Shown in pieces: positions 3,170-60,368 of a stretch of 64,000 bases of DNA. The stretch is from assembly GCA_022813865.1 (NCBI GenBank), contig JALDZX010000033.1, forward strand, positions 124,001-188,000. The letters run 5' to 3'. Within the stretch, counting starts at the first letter, position 1. Every line of letters starts with the position of its first letter. The notes beneath the pieces were generated by a model. That model had not been told where the DNA came from and made no database searches. It saw nothing but the letters and a program-made list of their open reading frames with translations. Made by a program: the position numbers and the translations under genes. This stretch comes from Xylographa opegraphella. Taxonomy: Eukaryota.

Positions 3170-4187
3170 TCATGCAACTTGCGTCATGAACCAGCTGAGG
3201 CCGTTAGCCGGGTATTCGCCATAGTATACTACTTGGTACTGTATCCCGTCGTTGGGAAACGATACGATGGTCGGCAGATCGCTTAGGCTGTCGGAGTCCT
3301 GGTTCGCCCAGGTGGAATCGGCGCCTGCTTCGGCGTAGTTGATGCTGACATCTATCAAGTGCGTTAGCAACGAGGACACGTAATCAACATTCCACAGTTG
3401 AGAAGAAACGAGATGGTGCAGAGCACACCCGAATATATTGGTCAGCAGCATTGGATGGTACGCTCGGAGCCAAGGGTTTGAGTACTTGTGCGTGACTTAT
3501 TCTCCCATGCATGGGCGAGAAAGCGCACGTCGCGTGGGGGTTTGGACAAACGTTTAGGGCTGGAGAGGACTTACGGCCATTACCAGTGACGTTTTGCCAG
3601 GTCAGCTCGAAAGTGCCTGGAGAGAAGATGAGCATGTCCGACTGCATGCCCATGCCGCCTAACCATCCGCAATAGGTCGTGTTTGGTGGGACTTGGATGG
3701 GCACGCCGGCCGGTGGGGCTGCAGGAGCTCCTACTGAGCCATCGAATGCGCTGTCTGTACCATCAGATGTTCCATCTGAACCATCGAATGATCCATCTGA
3801 ACCACCGAGTGCTCCATCTGAGCCATCGGATGCTCCCATTGAATCATACTGCCTTTCATAGAGTATATTTCTCATCTCACCCCGGCGTAAGTCTCTGCGC
3901 GCCGTCGGGGAATTGCCGTCGCCCCCAGTGCCGTCGCTAAACCCTGAGTCCTCTGCAGCACCCGGGTTCGGTCCAGGACCCATAGGGGGAATCACTGAGG
4001 CACCGACACCCAAACACTTTGGCTGAGAGGTTCCTGCGGGGAGACCAGTCGCCGTGGTAGCAGATGCTGCGGGTCCTGCCACAGCAGTTCCCGCACCAAC
4101 ATTTTGCGGAGCAGGGGAAGCAAGAGCGACAGAGAGGAGAAAAGTAAAGATGGCTGATTTCCTCGTCAAGAGATTAGAGTGCAGCAT
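3170..4187 (-). CDS. Secreted protein of unknown function with Ser/Asp/Gly heptad repeats
   Basis: Signal peptide (AIFTFLLSVALASPAPQ). Intron about 3574-3352 (GTAAGT...GCTAAC...TAG) joins ...VTGNG-H-VSINYAEAG... in frame to the stop at 3170. Confidence 0.7.
3739..3843. repeat. Degenerate 21-bp coding tandem repeat, about 5 copies
   Basis: Units such as ccatcagatgttccatctgaa / ccatcgaatgatccatctgaa / ccaccgagtgctccatctgag, encoding SDGxxDG-like heptads on the minus strand. Confidence 0.8.
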
Positions 4188-13652: not shown

Positions 13653-15432
13653 ATGGCCAACGCTTCGGATGAGAAACACCATGCGAATGCCGAGCCTGGT
13701 GTTGTGACGGCAGCCTCAAAGCAGGATTTGCAAAGTCCCCAGATCGATATCGCCAATAATCACGACATTGATGGCGAGGTCGATCTCCCTCGTCCAGCAG
13801 GGTGGATGTACAAGAGCTTCAGAATCGGTCCAATCGTTATCCCGTGGTATGCTTCACCACCGACACAGCTCTTCATCGTGGCATTGGTGTGCTTCCTCAA
13901 CCCAGGTGTATTCAACGCTTTGAATGGTTTGGGGGGGGGAGGGCAGCTCAATGCCACTGTTGCCGATAATGCTAACGTGGCTGTCTACTCAACATTCTCT
14001 ATCGTCGGTTTTTTTGCCGGGTCTTTGGTCAATCGACTGGGTATCAGACTGACGCTCAGCTTTGGTGGTCTTGGCTACTTTCTATATATCGCGAGCTACT
14101 TGAGCTACAACCACAATGCCAATTCAGGATTTGTGACGTTTGCAGGCGCTTTCCTAGGGCTCTGTGCAGGGCTGCTGTGGTCAGCGCAGGGAGCCATCAT
14201 GCTCAGTTACCCACCTGAACGGTCCAAGGGAAAATATATCTCTTGGTTCTGGATGATCTTCAATCTGGGAGGTGTGATAGGAAGTCTAGTTCCGCTGGGA
14301 CAGAACATCAACTCTACTGCTGGAGCTGTGAACGATGGTACCTACATCGGGTTTATGGTATTGACATTGATTGGTACGGTACTGGCATGGTTTCTTGTTG
14401 ATGCACGCCACGTTCGAAGGGTCGACGGATCGAAAGTCATCCTTATGAAACAGTAAGTTGTTGCATCTTTCCTCTTCTGTACATGTCGCTAACTAATTTG
14501 GCTAGCCCTACATGGCGGACGGAAATTCTTGCCGTGTGGGAGGTACTTTCAACCGAGAGTTACATTATTCTCCTTTTCCCGCTCTTCTTTGCCAGTAATT
14601 GGTTCTACAGCTACCAATTCAATGATGTCAACGGTGCGGTATTCAATATTAGAACCCGCGCCTTAAATAATGTTTTGTATTGGACCAGTCAGATAGTCGG
14701 TGCTTTCGTCTTCGGTGAGTGTTTTCCTTGCTTTTTATTCATATGTACTTTGATTGTTAATGGTATTGCAGGCTATGCTCTCGACATTGAGTCTGTACGG
14801 CGATCTATCAAGGCTAGAGCCGCACTAGTGGTCCTCTTTGTTCTCACTATGGGTAAGTGTAAGGCTGTTTTGACCCCTATCTTCGAAGGCTAAGCAACCC
14901 ATAGTCATTTGGGGAGGTGGCTATGCATTTCAGAAGAACTATGACAGAGCGGCGACTGAGGCCAAGGACTACATCACGATGGACTGGACCACAAATGGGT
15001 ATGTAGGACCGATGTTTCTTTACATTTTCTATGGGTTTTTCGACGCGGCCTGGCAAACGACGACGTACTGGTTCATGGGGTCTCTGTCCAACAATTCAAG
15101 AAAGCTTGCCAACTTTGTCGGATTCTACAAAGGTATCCAGGTAAGATTTGAATCGGCAGCCGCCCGTCAATCAGCCGAGTGTGTCGCTTACTCCATTATA
15201 GTCAGCTGGAGCGGCCATCAGCTACCGCATTGATGCGCTGAAGGCACCGTTTATGAACGAGTTTGCATCGAACTGGGCGCTTCTAGCTGGTAGCCTGCTT
15301 ATTGCGGCACCAGTGATCTTGATGAAAATCAAAGACACGGTACCGATCGAGGAGGACCTAAAGTTCAGTGACGAAACGCTCGAGGATGTGAAAGGGGTGG
15401 GAATGGATACGGAATTGGTCAGGAATTACTAG
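13653..15432 (+). CDS. UNC-93-like MFS transporter
   Basis: PGVFNALNGLGGGG, GLLWSAQGAIMLSYP, WMIFNLGGVIG, FFASNWFYSYQFN, GFYKGIQSAG. Introns 14453-14505, 14715-14771, 14853-14903, 15141-15201. Stop TAG at 15430-15432. Confidence 0.88.
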
Positions 15433-31100: not shown

Positions 31101-34100
31101 ACTTCCATTGATGATGAGAGTTCTTGACAATGATCCAACCCCTCAGAAGCGGGCCTCAGAGAAGATATTGCACACAATTCTAGTATTCGGTCCATCAGCC
31201 GAGGAAAGCATGTGGCTCATACTTCCTAAATTGGTCCGAACTTTCCAAATCACTTCGAATCCGGTCACCTTACGAAAGGCGTGCATCGATACTATCGGGA
31301 AGATCTCGCGTCAGGTCAATCTGTCAGACTACACGGGCCTTCTTACACATAGCTTAATCGAGGTGTTCTCGGCGAAAGAACAGGTTCTCAGGACGTCGGC
31401 TCTAGATTGCATTTGCGCCTTGGTGTACCAGATTGGGCATGACTTTGATCCATACGTAGATGCTGTCAAGAAAAGCCTTGCGAGGTCTCATATGCTGAAT
31501 CATGGTCGCTTTGACGATATGGTAACACGTCTGCGCAACGGCGAGTCGCTGCCCCAAGACTTAAGCCCTGATCGATTCTACGGAGCCGCCAGCGACGAAG
31601 CACCAACTTCAGATGTTGGCCAGCGAAAGCTTCCGGTCAACCAGGAACACCTTAAAGTCTCTTGGGAAGCTACTCAAAGATCTACACGAGACGACTGGCT
31701 GGAATGGATGAGACGTTTCAGTGTTGAACTCCTTAAGGAGTCTCCTTCGAATGCATTACGTGCCTGCGCTGTGCTTGCAAGTGTGTATCAGCCATTGGCA
31801 AAGGATCTTTTCAATGCTGCCTTTGTGTCATGCTGGACAGAGCTCTATGATCAATACCAAGAAGAGCTTGTCCGATCGCTAGAACTAGCTCTAATATCAC
31901 CACATATCCCTCCAGAAATTCTGCAGGTACTACTCAACCTTGCGGAGTTTATGGAACATGATGACAAACCATTACCGATCGATATTGGTACACTCGGCGT
32001 CTATGCCGGTAAATGTCATGCATACGCAAAGGCATTGCATTATAAAGAACTGGAGTTTGAGGAAGAAAAAACGCCTAGCGTTGTGGAGGCGCTTATAAGC
32101 ATTAACAATCAATTGCAGCAGACGGATGCAGCAGTAGGCATTCTGCGTAACGCGCAGAAATATCGCGATTTTGAGCTCAAGGAGACGTGGTTCGAAAAGC
32201 TTGGTCGCTGGGACGAGGCCTTACAAGCATACCAGACTAGGGAGCGGGAAGATCCGAATGCTTTCGATATCACCATGGGCAAGATGCGGTGCCTTCATGC
32301 CCTCGGAGAGTGGGATCTTTTGTCCAATCTTGCACAAGAGAAGTGGAGCCTAGCTTCGATAGATCATAAAAGGCACATCGCGCCTCTTGCAGCGGCAGCA
32401 GCATGGGGCCTTGGTCAGTGGGAGCTCATGGACAATTACCTCGAAGCGATGAAACTTCAGTCCACTGATCGCTCTTTCTTTGGCGCGATATTAGCCCTAC
32501 ATCAGAATCAGTTTCCAGACGCGTTGGACCACATTGAACGTGCTAGAGAAGGACTTGATACAGAACTGAGCGCCCTCTTGGGAGAGTCTTATACACGTGC
32601 TTATAGTGTTGTCGTTCGTGTGCAGATGTTGGCTGAACTCGAAGAAATAATAACATATAAGAAATCTGGTAACAACCCTGTCAAGCAAGCTACCATGAGG
32701 GAGACCTGGACTACACGATTGAAGGGTTGCGAACGCAACGTAGAGACTTGGCAACGAATGCTCAAGGTTCGAGCACTCGTACTCACACCTACCGAGAATA
32801 TTGACATGTGGATAAAGTTTGCCAATCTTTGTCGCAAGCAAGGACGTATTGGCTTAGCAGAGAAATCTCTCCGCTCACTACAGAATGGTCAGGAAGATTT
32901 GGACATTGACCCCTTGACAGCTACTTCAGCAATTCCGGAGGTTACGTATGCGCAACTCAAGTACGCTTGGACAACGGGAAGAAATGAGGCTGCCCTTGTG
33001 AATTTGCAAGCATTCACAAACAACCTCTCAGAACAGCTGGCCTCGAAAGTTGCAGCAGCCGTTCCTACAGACAGAAAGAACCAGCAAAGTGTCTTAAATG
33101 CCAACTACGACCCGAATGCCAACAAGTTGAGGTCATCGGATATCGATAGCACCAAGAGGTTGTTAGCAAAGTGCTACCTGAAGCTCGGTGAATGGCAAAC
33201 CTGGATGAAGCACGGAGACTGGGCTTCCGACCATGTCCATGAAATCCTAGCGAACTATTTAGCCGCTACCCAGTATAATCCCAATGCATACAAAGCCTGG
33301 CATGCCTGGGCTCTGGCCAATTTCGAGGTTGTATCTGCGATCACATCTCAACCTGATCGTGATGCAAGCACTTTGCCACAGGCAGCTATAGTTGACCATG
33401 TTGTTCCTGCGATCCAAGGCTTTTTTGAGTCTATCGATCGTTCAAACTCGAGCTCTCTTCAAGATACACTACGCCTTCTGACACTTTGGTTCAACCATGG
33501 AGCAGATGCTGAGGTTAATCGCACAATGGTCGAAGGCTTTACCCGAATCAACATCGATACATGGCTGGAAGTCATACCCCAGCTCATTGCACGCATTAAC
33601 CAGTCCAATCCCAAAATCCGCAGTACGATTCATCGACTGTTGGATGACGTTGGAAAAGCACATCCTCAGGCTCTCGTGTACCCTTTGACTGTGGCGATGA
33701 AGTCGAACGTTACCCGTCGCTCTCAATCAGCGGCCATAATCATGCAATCGTTGAGCAAGCATAGTCCAAAGTTAGTGGAGCAAGCTGAACTGGTCAGTCG
33801 CGAACTTATCCGTGTGGCTGTTTTATGGCATGAATTGTGGTACGAAGGTTTGGAGGAGGCTTCTCGCCTGTAAGTAGTCAGTGTTGCTGCAGATCACTGA
33901 TGCCCCCTGGTAAATATTACTTCGCATGTACTGACATGAGCCACAGCTATTTCGGTGACCACAATATCGAAGGAATGTTCGCTACCTTGGCGCCTCTTCA
34001 TATTTTACTGGAGGAAGTGAGTAGTTGAATTTGTGTCTCGTCACTAAAGACTAACAGAAATAGGGCCCTCAAACACTGCGTGAAATCTCTTTCACCCAGG

Positions 34101-53946: not shown

Positions 53947-55485
53947 ATGTCAGATATATCGGAGAAATCAGAGCATACACAGATTGGTAACGATGTTTTC
54001 ACAAGACATGAAGACGGTTCAGCCACAACGCTTCCTATACCACAAAATGGGGAAGCGACCAGCACAGATACGCCTCCTATGGTCAAGTTAGAGGCCCCAG
54101 AGCCCACGGTACCGGTACTTAACCCACCTCCAAATGGAGGTATGCAAGCATGGCTGCAGGTGTTCGGGGCGTTCTTCCTCGCAATGAACTCTTGGTATGT
54201 CTATGGTATCCTCTATCAGCGGAAGAATCAGCTGATTATACGTAGGGGGATTGTTAACTCGTACGGAGTATATCAAACCTACTACTCTACTGGAATCCTG
54301 AGCAGCGAGACAGCGTCTAACATCTCTTGGATTGGTTCAATACAAGCCTTTTTGCTGCTTCTTGTCGGGATTGCCACTGGTCCTATATATGACGCAGGCC
54401 ACTTTCAAATGTTGATCCGGCTGGGCGCGTTTCTTACAGTCTTTGGCTTGATGATGACAAGCATAAGCACGGAATACTATCAAGTAATGCTTGCACAGGG
54501 CATCTGCGTTGGATTGGGAAGCGGCTGTCTCTTTGTGCCATCCTTTGCTATAATACCGCAATACTTTTCTACTCGAAAGGCCTTGGCAACAGGTATCGCT
54601 GCTAGTGGAAGTAGTCTAGGTTCAAATTGCCCTTCATCACGTTCGATCGCACTGCCATACTGATGCAATCCAGGTGGAATCATATACCCCATCGTTTTCT
54701 ATAAGCTGCAGCCTCAAATTGGGTTTGCATGGGCAACACGTGTGCTTGGTTTCATCACTCTGGCTGGGTTTGTTGTCTCCCTTAGTGTGATGCGTGTTAG
54801 GATTTTGCCGAAACAGAAGCGCGCACTGTTGGAACTCGGAGCTTTTAAAGAAATACCTTACGCATTTTTCACAATTGGACTCTGTAAGTCTTGCAAAAAA
54901 CCACATCTCTTGAAACATTGGCTGAGACACATCCCCTTAGTTCTATCTTTTATTGGTCTGTATACGCCCATATTCTACGTTCAATCATACGCTATCCAAG
55001 AAGGCATCACCAACCAGAACCTTGGCTTCTACCTCCTCCCAATTCTGAACGCTGGTTCTGTGTTTGGCCGGATCCTTCCCAACTTCATAGCCGATAAGAC
55101 CGGGCCGCTTAACATGCTCATTCCGTGTGCATTTGTAGCCAGTATCCTCTGTTTTGCGTGGATAGGCATAAAAGATGTGCCTGGTATTGTGGTTTTCGCG
55201 TTACTCTACGGTTTCTTCTCAGGCGGTTTCGTTTCTCTCCCTCCGACGTGTATCACGAGCCTGAGTCCTCATCTCGGGGTGGTCGGTACACGCATGGGGA
55301 TGTGCTTCGGACTCACTTCGTTCGGTGTTCTCATTGGAACGCCTGTCTCGGGAGCACTACTGACCTCGACGGGCTCATGGACAGGCACTCAACTATTCGC
55401 TGCCGCTACCGTTGCACTGGCACTGGTCTGCTTGCTAGTCGCACGGGGAACCAAGGCAGGGCTGAAGTTGGCTGTGAAGGCCTAA
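53947..55485 (+). CDS. MFS monocarboxylate transporter-like (MCH/MCT family)
   Basis: PPNGGMQAWLQVFG, SNISWIGSIQ, QYFSTRKALATGIAASGSSLGG, GRILPNFIADKTGPLN, GTRMGM. Introns about 54196-54246, 54620-54673, 54883-54940. Confidence 0.92.
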
Positions 55486-56635
55486 TCCGCATATTCGCCT
55501 AGATGTGCACTGCACATACAAAATTGACCTAACACAAGGGTGACATCGGGACGTAAGATTCCGTTAGATTCACAACCTATCGGATCTGAATGTCCCCGCC
55601 AGATGTCCCTCGTCGAACCTGAACCACCATCAGCGTTCAGCCTCAGGCTCGAATTGTAACACACTAGGGAGATGAAATGGCAGAACCAGTCGACGACCCT
55701 CGACTCCATAGTTACGGTTAGGATATCATCAATCGGTAGCAGACAACCTAGATTAGGTGCTTCCTCCAGAAGAGCTTCAATCTATGCTCAATATCAACGT
55801 ACAACCAACCGCCATACCCCTTCTCCATCTCCCACACAAGCCCTCGTCCGCAGTGACCCATTTTCTGCATCGTTCAGATGTCGATTTCAATCTCGACGTA
55901 GCATCTCATAACCTCCAGACACCAGACACCCATACCGCAAACCGCATACCTCCGAACCTAATCTACCATTCCATAGCCCAAGCTTGGAGAACTGGCGCTA
56001 CACCGTCCATGCACGCCATCACAGCTCCGACAACCACGCGCACGAGAACTTAGCCCATGACACCTTACCGTGTCACCTCGTGCACGCAAGCCTCGCGCTC
56101 AACGGACAGCCAGTCAGCCGCCGACAAGCGAAAGCTTCGTCGCACGCGGAGCAAGCAGTCCGATCCAGTGGACGCGTAGCCCGAGAATTTACCTAATAGC
56201 GCGATGAGCTGCGTCCGCGGTGGATGGTATGCATAACGTCGAGCGCGATACTGATATCCTACCGAACTGCGTGAACTCTCAATCCTGCCAGCAGGAAGCG
56301 GCACGGGCGTCACCCTGAGCAAGTTTGCACCCGTTTCCACCACTGCCTGCTCGAAGAAAGCCTCCCCGTCAGCTGAGTCAGGAGGGGTCATTGCTGGCAC
56401 CCCCAAGCATGTCCCCCCCGGAGGCAATCCATCCCCCCTGCCCCACCACCCGCCGTTTCACCCGTCCGCCCGCTGGGCTAGCCCGCATTCCGCAAAAGAC
56501 GCCTAGGAGCGATCGTCCCCCCGCCGGCACACCGACAAGCAGCCGATCCCGATCCTTCGAGAGCGGCCGAAACAAAAGGAAAAAGGAAAGCTACTCTTGT
56601 TTGCACTGCAGTGACTGCGAGCTCGACTGTGAGGA

Positions 56636-56643
56636 TATAAAAA
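56636..56643 (+). promoter_or_regulatory. TATA box of metallothionein gene 1
   Basis: TATAAAAA about 160 bp upstream of ATG 56795, followed by a CT-rich stretch. Confidence 0.6.
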
Positions 56644-56794
56644 GGGCCTCTCCCCTCCCCGTCGACTTGCACTTCTTTGACACTCTCGAACAAAGCGCCC
56701 CTTCCTCCCAACCAAAAAAATACAAGCCAGCCATACCTTCAAAAAAGCCTATCCCAAACCACAAACCTCGAACCATCCAGCCACGCAAAACAAT

Positions 56795-57039
56795 ATGGGT
56801 AAGTGTTGAACACCTAATGAGCATCGCTTCCCTCCCCCTTTACCCCCACACTTCCCACCCGCCCCAGACAACTTTATCCCGAACCCTACTCTACCCTACC
56901 CTCCCCGAGCGCAGACCAGACCATTCGTTCAGAGGACTTCCGCTGACATTCACGTGCCCGTGCTCCAGGACCCGATTGCCCGTCGACATGCACGTGCGGC
57001 AGCTCGTGCTCCTGCCCGAAGGGACAGTGCAACTGCTAG
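56795..57039 (+). CDS. Metallothionein 1 (24 aa, 7 Cys): MGPDCPSTCTCGSSCSCPKGQCNC
   Basis: Exon 1 ATGG (56795-56798), intron 56799-56968 (GTAAGT...GCTGAC...CCAG), exon 2 56969-57039 ending in TAG. Three CxC motifs, no aromatic residues. Confidence 0.88.
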
Positions 57040-57643
57040 GTTTCACGCCGTAGGAGAAGGAGGTGTTGAGAACCTGCTGCGGTGGAGCTGCAGGATGGGG
57101 GAGATAACGAGGTGTGGTGCAGGGGTTGATGGGGGTGGGGAGGGCAATGCCCGGTGGATGATTGAGTGGGGAGAGGAGAGTCGCTGCAGGAATGGGAATG
57201 TCGGTGGGGGTGGATCGATTGATTGATTGATCAGGAAGGAAGCAAAAGCCTGTGTGGTTGGTGGTTCGCTTGCTACGACGCGGGACGCTGCGACGTGGAT
57301 AGATGAATCATAGATATGCTCCTCGTCTTGTTTGTTGTCTAGGTACCTACTGCAGTGCCTTCTCGATCGGCTCGCATATCCGGGGACTTGACAACTATCC
57401 GACCTTATTCTCCGCCAGCATCCCTACAGCGCAAATGTCCGTGCTGCCACCCATCATCCGGTTGCACGTGCGCCCCCGAAACTCAGTGGGGGTTGTACGT
57501 TGCAGTATCTGTATGTCACTCGGGCCAGAGGCACCGAGCGGAACCGGCCGTCCAGAGCGAGAGCACAACCTCATTCGCCCAAGCCCCTCATCCTCCGTTT
57601 GAAAGTCCGTGCGGTGAGACCGCACCTGCGCTGCCGGTTGCTG

Positions 57644-57650
57644 TATAAGA
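57644..57650 (+). promoter_or_regulatory. TATA-like box of metallothionein gene 2
   Basis: TATAAGA about 140 bp upstream of ATG 57783. Confidence 0.5.
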
Positions 57651-57782
57651 AGTGGTGGCTACTCTTTCGCTTCCCACCATCCTTAACTAGCAGAAGCGCT
57701 TTCAGACCTTGATACAAAAGCATACCGTTCATCAAATCCACCGAGAATACCCATCCAGCACCACACGTCCGACTCCATCGAA

Positions 57783-57911
57783 ATGGCACCCTGCTCCTGC
57801 TCCAGCTGTAGCTGCACCGGTTCCTGTGCCAGCTGTGGTTGCTCCAGCTGCGGCGTAGGTCATCTCTCGTGTCCGGTACCACAACTAGTACTGACGCCGG
57901 TGTAGCATTAG
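57783..57911 (+). CDS. Metallothionein 2 (25 aa, 8 Cys; CAP5-like): MAPCSCSSCSCTGSCASCGCSSCGH
   Basis: Exon 1 57783-57854, intron 57855-57905 (GTAGGT...ACTGAC...TAG), exon 2 CAT TAG. Resembles the remembered Colletotrichum CAP5 pattern (MAPCSC...C..H). Confidence 0.9.
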
Positions 57912-58263
57912 GCGGGCAGAAATGTGACGTCCAAGCAATGTGAACAAGGGGTGATTGCCGTGCGTGAAGCAATGGTGAGAAGCATAGTACAGTGATGTCG
58001 AATGGTGGTGATCTGGCTGGAATGGTTGGAGGATGTTTGCAGCCGAATTTGCTTATGTCTTCCAACATATGACTGTCATTAGAATGCAATGGGTTTTGGA
58101 GGCGTTCAGGAGTATTTGATACCATAACCATTTCAAACACACTGACCCTGGTCACAATTTCCAGTTCTCAACGGTCGTGATGCCGAGAGTGAGGTGCCAT
58201 TCATCCAGCCTTCTGGTGTAGTGCTGAGATGATGAATTGTGACTGGCAAACCAATACCTCGCC

Positions 58264-59926
58264 TTAACCCAACCCCATTTTCACTTCATCGCCAACATTC
58301 CAAGCGCCCGCTTGCTCTGCGGAGTCCGAAACCACGGAGTGGTCTTGGTCGTCATCGCTGGCAAACAGGCTTCTGTTCGACTGCACACTGCTTGGTGGAC
58401 TCGTTCTACTGTTTTTTCTAAAAAATCCGCGCCTTTTGTTTGGATTGCCGCTCCCATTACCTGTATCCTTAATAGAGATGGGTGAGCCGAGATTACTATC
58501 GACCAGTGTCGAAGTTTGTGAAGATGCAACACTACCACCCTTCGTCTCGGACGCAGGCAGCTCAGTGGGATGAATTCCTGTGTCCGAAGTATCATCCACG
58601 AGCTCAGCGTCACGGTACCACTTTCTCCGCCGGGTATAACGTCCCCAGCCATCTTGCCGTCGTCCGTCATTCCACTAGATGGAGTTAGCGTACTGGCATT
58701 AAGAATATGACATTGGCCATTACCTTGTTGTCGTAATAGATCCACCCTTCGCTGTTGGACTTGCTTCCTCCCGACGCGCTAGATTTTGCAACGCCCTCAA
58801 TATGCCACTCGCTACCAGGAACCCACTGCCAATGGGAGCTATTGTTTTCCATCACGGGCAGGGAAAATTCCTCTTTGGGCTGTGAGGGGCTGAGGTGTTC
58901 ATCAGTCCATGCCGATCGTTCATAAGCAAAAAGGGAGGATGTCCAGCCTAGACCAAGCCATCTCCGCTGGTTCTCGTAAACAATGAAGGTAAATCGCACT
59001 CCGGTGGAGGCAGATCGTCGATGACTGACAAGAGAACTTGCCATATCTTGTTGGCTTTTATTTCGTGGTGGCAAAGGTGGTGGAGCCACCACTCCTGTTG
59101 AACTTTGCATGAAACTGAGCCCTGTTATAATGGAGAGAATATAGCGGACTGTAAGAGATCGCCAAAGAATTGCTCGAGTTACTCTGGCGGGTCGGGAGTG
59201 CCAACTTAACATGAGCGTACCAACAGCCAGTACGACACGTTGCGTGGTAATAATTCTTATGGGTGGGAGGGCGAGTCCCACCCATATTGGGGTTATCAAC
59301 AAGATCCGAATGAAAAGCGTGGTCAAGGCAGGACGCGTTGTGGCAGACGTTGCGGTTCTTTGCGTAGACAGAAAGTCTGTCAAGTCCAGAAACGGGTCTA
59401 AGAGTATGTTGCAGCGTACCACAAAACCATTCAAGGTATCGACGATCTCATCCAAGCTCTTTTGACGTGTAACGAGTGCTCCCGGATCATTTTTCTGACC
59501 CTTTACCTTTTCCCCGGTCAAGCCAGTCGAGGACAGCGGGGAGTACCTACGCGAATACATACATAATATCAACAAAATGACTACGAGTACAGGACCAGCC
59601 CATACTACAATCGTTCCACCATATATAGTCAGCGCCCAAAACGCGCCAATGACCAAGAAGCTCTCCCAAGGGTCTCCGCTGGACCACGAGATCAGGCCAG
59701 CGAACTTGTTGAGCGGTAAGAGGAAGGGATGTGAGAATGCTAGAGCACGAGTGACCTGAGGTGGAGTAGCGATGAGGAGTGGTGACTTTTGCTGGACTAA
59801 GATACTGCTTCTTTGTTGACCTTTAGTTGGAGTTTGAGATGGAGAGAACGGCGCAATGGTAGATGGATTTTGGTCTTGAAAGACTCTGGGCGAGGCAGGA
59901 TCAGATCCTTTCGTTGGTGATGACAT
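58264..59926 (-). CDS. PEX30: Pex24p/DysF-domain peroxin (Pex23/Pex30 family)
   Basis: GDPWESFL, YENQRRWLGLGW, GWIYYDNK|WND...GWGRYTRRRKWYRDAEL. Intron about 58723-58676. Confidence 0.88.
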
Positions 59927-60368
59927 CTCTTGGAGCCAAGGTGTCTCTGTTGATGTTAGCTGGAGCGGTTTCGCAGAATGACAGACAGTCTACCAAACGC
60001 AGCCATACAACAGCTCCTAGATTGTTTGCTTGCTTGCTTGTCGTGTTCTTGCTCTTAGATGTTCGAGGTTAACATAGTGATAGGTAGAGCAATCTGGAAA
60101 CGCCGCTCTATTAAGACTCCATGCCATGACATACATCAACAGTCGAAATGGTCCTCGGGACCATACAGGTATTCACAGCGGGCTTGAAGGCAGTCATTGT
60201 TGCATGTGAAGATCTGGGGGAACGCCCACCGGGGGAACTATTAACCCGGAACAGACGCTAATGACTGGCGAGTTCCATTCTCTCTCGGACATTTTTCTAT
60301 GCGGAAGCAAGCCTACCAAATATGCAACGCCGACCGGGCTCACCCACAGAGACGTCTTTGTTCCCATA

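Follow-up and report, generated by a model that had tools for sequence, protein, structure and literature searches.

Two very short cysteine-rich reading frames lie close together on one strand of the genome of Xylographa opegraphella, and the question that this locus raises is whether they are genes and, if so, what kind of peptide they encode. They are part of a 64,000 bp stretch of DNA that was analysed as a whole (contig JALDZX010000033.1 of assembly GCA_022813865.1, positions 124,001 to 188,000 of the forward strand), which is called the window here and is numbered from its first base. Both are on the plus strand, inside a gap of about 2.8 kb that separates an MFS transporter gene from a Pex24p-family gene, and we call them gene A and gene B in their order along that strand. 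Our reading, to which we assign a probability of about 65%, is that they are two independent same-strand micro-genes, each encoding a metallothionein-type peptide. The support is good for gene B and somewhat weaker for gene A, and our confidence in gene B alone is higher than this joint figure.

Anatomy of the two predicted genes and the odds of chance

The preliminary description of this DNA had proposed here two same-strand, intron-split genes for peptides of 24 and 25 amino acids, each with a TATA-like box and splice signals. We were able to rebuild both genes by coordinates (Table 1), with 743 bp from the gene A stop codon to the gene B ATG.

The leader of gene A is about 150 nt long, C/A-rich and free of ATG, so that the ATG at 56795 is the first one after the TATA box; it has A at position -3 and G at +4. 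The predicted acceptor of the gene A intron is the first AG past the branch sequence CTGAC, which lies 22 nt ahead of it, the phase of the splice is correct, and the donor sequence GTAAGTGT also serves a real internal intron of the window at 14853 (exon at 14849). The product would be a peptide of 24 amino acids (Met, Gly and then PDCPSTCTCGSSCSCPKGQCNC) with 7 Cys (29%) and three CxC, in the spacing C-x3-CxC-x3-CxC-x4-CxC. An unspliced gene A message could be read for only four codons from the ATG, and no ATG lies within the Cys-rich frame itself. The G+C content at third codon positions (GC3) is 0.86 in gene A and 0.75 in gene B, as against 0.49-0.70 in the neighbouring genes (0.49, 0.52 and 0.70 in three coding stretches).

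Two other explanations of the long gene A intron were considered and rejected: an intron-encoded small nucleolar RNA (snoRNA), for which there is no Rfam match, and an alternative product of 121 codons through an acceptor at 56866, whose frame is of low complexity and belongs to no family (judged by reading; no search was made). A 15-nt near-repeat (14 of 15 bases; CCCGTCGAC[T/A]TGCAC) is present on the plus strand at 56658-56672, just 3' of the gene A TATA box, and again at 56979-56993 in exon 2, with a weaker third copy at the intron branch (56940-56957); chance expectation for this near-repeat is, by a rough estimate, about 0.07. The base skew of the DNA reverses at the gene A stop codon. 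C strongly predominates in the leader and intron (GC skew -0.34 at 56500-56999), and the 400 nt 3' of the stop are G-rich, with runs of GGGG (GC skew +0.23 at 57000-57499).

The leader of gene B is likewise C/A-rich, with no ATG between its TATAAG and the start codon at 57783, which has a purine at -3 and G at +4. The predicted acceptor is again the first AG past the branch, which is 11 nt ahead of it. The intron is of typical length, since five other introns measured in the window are about 42-61 nt long, and its size and layout are like those of the intron in the Pex24p-family gene (about 52 nt, GTAATG...CTAAC...TAG). The spliced product would have 25 amino acids, 8 of them Cys (32%), with three CxC and a single, terminal His, in the spacing CxC-x2-CxC-x3-C-x2-CxC-x2-C. 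Use of an alternative acceptor would change the tail of this peptide (that at 57920, for example, would add 7 residues), and an unspliced mRNA would give 40 amino acids. Exon 1 contains two tandem 27-nt (9-codon) units, 57790-57816 and 57817-57843, that are 74% identical, which suggests that the peptide arose by internal duplication of a unit x-C-S-C-x-S-C-x-C.

Table 1. Positions in the window of genes A and B, of sequence elements near them and of the two flanking genes
Feature	Position	Strand	Remarks
MFS transporter gene	53947-55482	+	Pfam
10-bp palindrome CACTGCAGTG	56604-56613	.	23 bp 5' of gene A TATA box; possible regulatory site
Gene A TATA box TATAAAAA	56636-56643	+	159 nt 5' of ATG; sole plus-strand TATA[AT]A within 55500-58300
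Gene A coding exon 1, ATGG	56795-56798	+	ATG and first base of the split Gly codon
Gene A intron	56799-56968	+	170 nt, C-rich; donor GTAAGT, branch CTGAC 56943-56947, acceptor CAG 56966-56968
Gene A exon 2	56969-57039	+	Split-codon Gly, then PDCPSTCTCGSSCSCPKGQCNC (P0001); stop TAG 57037-57039
Perfect inverted repeat GTGCGGT-gag-ACCGCAC	57609-57625	.	Contains CGG-N5-CCG; 19 bp 5' of gene B TATA-like box
Gene B TATA-like box TATAAG	57644-57649	+	139 nt 5' of ATG
RF01504 (Afu_254) match	57712-57864	+	Gene B leader, exon 1 and first 10 nt of intron; model positions 1-158 of 158
Gene B exon 1	57783-57854	+	24 codons, MAPCSCSSCSCTGSCASCGCSSCG (P0002)
Gene B intron	57855-57905	+	51 nt; donor GTAGGT, branch TACTGAC 57889-57895, acceptor TAG
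Gene B exon 2, CAT TAG	57906-57911	+	C-terminal His and stop
Pex24p-family (PEX30/31/32) peroxin ORF	58685-59989	-	Pfam; gene 58267-59926 (minus strand)

The odds that such frames occur by chance were estimated with a filter that accepts stop-free windows of 22 amino acids, in all six frames, with 7 or more Cys and three or more CxC (loose), or that in addition contain no F, W, Y, L, I, V or M (strict). The real window contains three loose and two strict windows, the strict pair being genes A and B, and among 3000 first-order Markov simulations of 64 kb a single loose window occurred in 41, two loose windows in none and a strict window in none. The third loose window of the real DNA, at about 31749, belongs to a hydrophobic 37-codon frame that is not metallothionein-like; thus, for the loose filter, the real DNA exceeds the simulation. 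Two Cys-dense frames, 31737-31847 (plus strand) and 3940-4173 (minus strand), each have 8 Cys in 24 residues and a large number of hydrophobic or aromatic ones; they are not metallothionein-like and probably arise off-frame or by chance.

It is therefore very improbable that neither gene A nor gene B is a gene and that C/G-rich intergenic DNA has produced both frames by chance. The gene models are predictions from DNA sequence, long spurious open reading frames (ORFs) abound in the interval, and the unrelated frame at about 31749 passes the loose filter, but two strict windows lie side by side on one strand within 1 kb where 3000 simulations produced none, the promoter, leader, Kozak context and splice signals are all in register with the two frames, and gene B resembles a transcribed Aspergillus locus (see below).

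The two genes are not recent duplicates of one another, as their peptides give no alignment in BLASTP; the preliminary description had drawn the same conclusion from the difference in Cys spacing and intron position. Its view that these are two credible, separate genes of metallothionein make-up is upheld by the gene models, by the comparison of Cys windows with the simulations and by BLASTP.

Gene B and the Rfam family RF01504

The only Rfam match in the region 56300-58300, at 29.3 bits, is to RF01504 (Afu_254), and it spans the whole family model on the strand of gene B (Table 1). Its E-value is 0.0081 for the 601 bases searched and 0.027 for 2 kb, and of the four matches that a scan of the whole window returned with E up to 5 it ranks first. 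Rfam classes the family as a non-coding small RNA (sRNA). Its consensus nevertheless contains, after a leader of about 75 nt, a frame of 23 codons from an AUG that has nine Cys codons (positions 4, 6, 8, 9, 13, 16, 18, 19 and 21), starts Met-Ser-Pro-Cys-Ser-Cys and ends Cys-Gly-Leu-stop. The alignment places the gene B AUG on this AUG, with agreement at 24 of the 29 bases around the start (manual count), 7 of the 8 gene B Cys codons on consensus Cys codons and the final Gly on a Gly codon, at the cost of a two-codon insertion in gene B. The two frames thus share a Met-x-Pro-Cys-Ser-Cys start and a C-x3-C-x2-CxC-x2-C-Gly end. They differ in that the consensus frame is intronless and ends Gly-Leu-stop, whereas gene B is two codons longer and is interrupted by an intron ahead of its last codon.

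Two controls bear on whether base composition could produce such a match. None of 13 bacterial loci with Cys-codon repeats (65.9 kb) matches RF01504 at E up to 10, whereas repeats of this type do match another family, isrG. At E up to 5 there is no RF01504 match in the Cys-rich gene A region either. These negative controls support a real resemblance over an effect of composition. A search of one bacterial genome and 14 control genomes gave no RF01504 match, as expected.

The Afu-254 RNA was cloned twice, as cDNAs of 163 nt, and northern blots of A. fumigatus showed it as bands of 90 and 420 nt; its locus at chr7:927204-927348, unannotated and with no recognised conservation, lies between Afu7g04110 and Afu7g04120 (PMC2377427). 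A term search did not find "metallothionein" in the main text of the same source (PMC2377427). At the nucleotide level gene B thus resembles a locus that A. fumigatus transcribes and that has a comparable tiny Cys-rich frame. Judging from the aligned frames, the RF01504 "sRNA" probably represents a piece of the mRNA of a micro-metallothionein, and gene B is probably a distant relative of the Afu-254 frame; it is not filed as a member of the family because its score is below the Rfam cut-off.

Comparison with known metallothioneins

Metallothioneins, by the definition of Kagi and Binz, are proteins of low molecular weight with a high content of Cys in CxC or CxxC arrangements, without aromatic residues, that form metal-thiolate clusters. 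The predicted peptides have 24 and 25 residues, of which 7 of 24 (gene A) and 8 of 25 (gene B) are Cys, with three CxC in each; neither contains F, W or Y, nor any aliphatic residue, and the rest are small or polar.

The Cu-metallothioneins of Neurospora crassa and Agaricus bisporus, both filamentous fungi, are described as having about 25-26 amino acids and 7 Cys mostly in CxC, as lacking aromatic residues and as binding about 6 Cu(I); the seven-Cys pattern of this group (family 8, fungi-I) is X2-CXC-X5-CXC-X3-CXC-X2-C-X3 (PMC4755600). Gene A resembles them in its size and its 7 Cys. It has a partial likeness to the 7-Cys unit CXCX3CSCPPGXCXCAXCP of Tremella mesenterica TmMT, which the same paper aligns with units of Cryptococcus neoformans CnMT1/2 (PMC4755600); these proteins are Cu-thioneins. 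Residues 9-24 of the gene A peptide read CXC-X3-CSC-P-K-G-X-CXC and so match this unit to its third CxC with a single change, P to K; unlike the unit, the peptide lacks the AXCP tail and has its seventh Cys at the N-terminal side. The Tremella and Cryptococcus proteins are long, modular basidiomycete proteins with several tandem units, and gene A has a single unit. Repeats near the Tremella unit (of the type C-T-C-P-P-G-T-C-T-C-G-x-N-C-T-C) form the C-terminal part of a fragment encoded on the minus strand of a 473-base metagenome contig (L085:1-471), where they are fused to an unrelated N-terminal domain.

A sequence search of the PDB gave for gene A only matches at E = 2.5 and E = 4.6, and for gene B none. 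The second of these, to the metallothionein chain 1qjl_A, is gapless, with all 7 Cys aligned and 11 of 20 residues identical (manual count), and at E = 4.6 is not significant.

Gene B has a parallel in the small metallothionein of Heliscus (Neonectria) lugdunensis, which the literature describes as cadmium-specific, with cadmium detoxification as its major function, and as having 8 Cys and a metal-binding His. Under the 51-nt intron model the gene B peptide likewise has 8 Cys and one His. The assertion of the preliminary description that tiny CxC-rich peptides of ascomycetes bind Cu(I) is therefore too narrow. Heliscus belongs to the Sordariomycetes, and the Sordariomycete species with which the preliminary description had compared the locus are not relatives of X. 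opegraphella, which is a lichen-forming Lecanoromycete. The Cys spacing and C-terminal His of the Heliscus protein are presumably equal to those of gene B.

Genes A and B are also like MMT1 of Magnaporthe oryzae in being very small, Cys-rich and from an ascomycete. MMT1 has 23 amino acids and is missed by standard annotation unless the length threshold is lowered, according to a 2026 preprint. Adjacent metallothionein genes, as genes A and B would be, are known from Yarrowia lipolytica, where the pairs MT1/MT2 and MT3/MT4 are called highly homologous; genes A and B, unlike these, have no detectable alignment.

If both genes function as we propose, a TATA promoter of its own would drive each of them, a single intron would be removed from the transcript and one peptide made from it, and the two might be regulated jointly. 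The Cys thiolates, with the terminal His in gene B, would wrap a small metal-thiolate cluster, and the peptides would buffer or detoxify soft metals. By analogy with the fungal 7-Cys precedents, which bind about six Cu(I), the gene A peptide would most probably form a Cu(I) cluster, and by analogy with the Heliscus protein, which also has 8 Cys and a His, the preferred metal of the gene B peptide may be Cd(II) or Zn(II).

Both peptides could be real and yet serve mainly in something other than metal storage, such as a redox or antioxidant role, the cell wall, metal chaperoning or signalling. We regard this as quite unlikely, given that their size, their CxC density and the lack of a signal peptide or other domain are defining metallothionein traits, and that related small fungal peptides bind Cu or Cd. 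Such a role is nonetheless on record for MMT1, which a review places in appressorium walls as an antioxidant with a role in the cell wall and in pathogenicity; it would also accord with the lack of an established, recognisable metal-response element in the locus and with the Cys spacing of the family 8 Cu-thioneins, which fits neither gene A nor gene B.

This misfit to family 8 is one of several points that weigh against two metallothionein genes. In X. opegraphella itself both genes are predictions from DNA. The gene A intron, at 170 nt, is about three times as long as the five other introns measured, which is the main weakness of the gene A model, and the model also needs a coding exon of 4 nt. 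The RF01504 match of gene B has half of the gathering score of 60 and E = 0.87 at the 64-kb scale, and the real DNA exceeds the simulation in that the loose Cys filter is also passed at about 31749. The nearest protein-atlas clusters are metallothioneins at only 0.75-0.83, or are unnamed, and have the level of leads. Pfam gives 0 families for either exon peptide. A HMMER search of 1.84 billion representatives with a 30-residue frame over gene A exon 2 gave 6 matches, of which the two that were examined are TPR-repeat proteins; these two are spurious because they align to the intron-derived part of the query, and the remaining four likewise belong to this class of long, multi-stretch protein.

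The points that concern gene A would be explained if only gene B works and gene A is a look-alike, unexpressed or not spliced as modelled, for example a decaying copy. That gene A has no Rfam, Pfam or significant PDB match, needs so short an exon and so long an intron (about 42-61 nt being the range elsewhere), and shares its interval with a Cys-rich fragment at 57436-57474 that hints at metallothionein-like debris would all agree with this. On the other hand, the interval has a single strong TATA box, and it belongs to gene A, as do a leader free of ATG, a perfect GTAAGT donor directly behind the initial ATG, an in-phase branch and acceptor (the first AG) and an intact frame of 23 codons with 7 Cys and a GC3 of 0.86, so that we consider a non-functional gene A unlikely and hold to the reading in which both genes encode metallothionein-type peptides.

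No protein of 22-70 amino acids in a collection of 5.8 billion shares three 5-residue words with the 40-residue unspliced gene B frame. Gene B thus looks unannotated, since this collection contains the annotated neighbour from the same species, which bears out, for gene B, the expectation of the preliminary description that the genes would be missing from automated annotation. Of 8 ORFs in the interval that run from ATG to stop, none has an exact entry in the protein collection, and a homologue search with a 198-residue frame antisense to gene B (residues 92-141 scored) found none. A metagenome scan for the Cys/Pro/Gly pattern of gene A gave 104 loci, nearly all of them simple repeats of the TG/TGC type, and no gene A orthologue. 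A scan of prokaryote contigs for the gene B pattern gave 0 loci with ATG-x-Pro ahead of it and at least 120 loci without, all of them simple Cys-codon repeats. Four peptide strings from genes A and B were not found in a literature search.

The surrounding locus and the meaning of the pair

The flanking genes are as the preliminary description had named them, an MFS transporter and a member of the Pex24p (PEX30/31/32) family according to Pfam, and the gap between them holds nothing recognisable beyond genes A and B. The Pex24p-family gene ends at 58267, about 350 bp from the gene B stop to its own stop codon, so that gene B and the peroxin gene are convergent. The peroxin ORF has 100% identity to an X. 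opegraphella protein, and 90% to X. parallela, 89% to X. vitiligo, 86% to X. trunciseda and 68% to Lambiella insularis. Other neighbours that Pfam names are Pam16, a YGR210-like GTPase, a glucosidase II beta-like protein and Rtf2.

Two symmetrical sequences stand upstream of the TATA boxes. The core ACTGCAGT of the palindrome ahead of gene A has two copies in the window, both within this locus (the second at 57349-57356), a number that is not significant by itself, as 33 of 100 shuffles have at least two copies. The inverted repeat ahead of gene B is a possible binding site for a dimeric regulator. Between the two genes, on the plus strand, the frame at 57436-57474 reads K-C-P-C-C-H-P-S-S-G-C-T-C, with 5 Cys in 13 residues, and contains TGCACGTGC, a sequence that exon 2 of gene A has as well (56989-56997). 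Neither a start codon nor a model of splicing was found for this frame, which may be the relic of a third copy or may be due to chance.

Lichens are classic accumulators and biomonitors of metals. A literature search, judged mostly by title, found no description of a metallothionein gene of a lichen-forming fungus. Genes A and B would then be an ordinary kind of gene in a fungal group for which the searched literature describes none, and the finding is useful and not surprising, since small fungal metallothioneins are of a well-known kind. The two genes are specific and testable candidates for metal buffering by the fungal partner of a lichen, and they illustrate how genes of 24-25 codons slip under annotation thresholds. 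A wider proposal is tentative and on balance doubtful: the pair might form a metal-buffering cassette that is conserved in lichen-forming fungi, divides its function between one 7-Cys peptide of Cu(I) type and one 8-Cys/His peptide of Cd/Zn type, and contributes to the well-known metal tolerance and accumulation of lichens, with gene B belonging to a Pezizomycotina-wide and almost never annotated family of micro-metallothioneins that Rfam lists as the non-coding sRNA Afu_254. If RF01504 is indeed a micro-metallothionein mRNA, this would correct the database entry and point to an unannotated A. fumigatus gene, and this side result may matter more widely than the gene pair itself.

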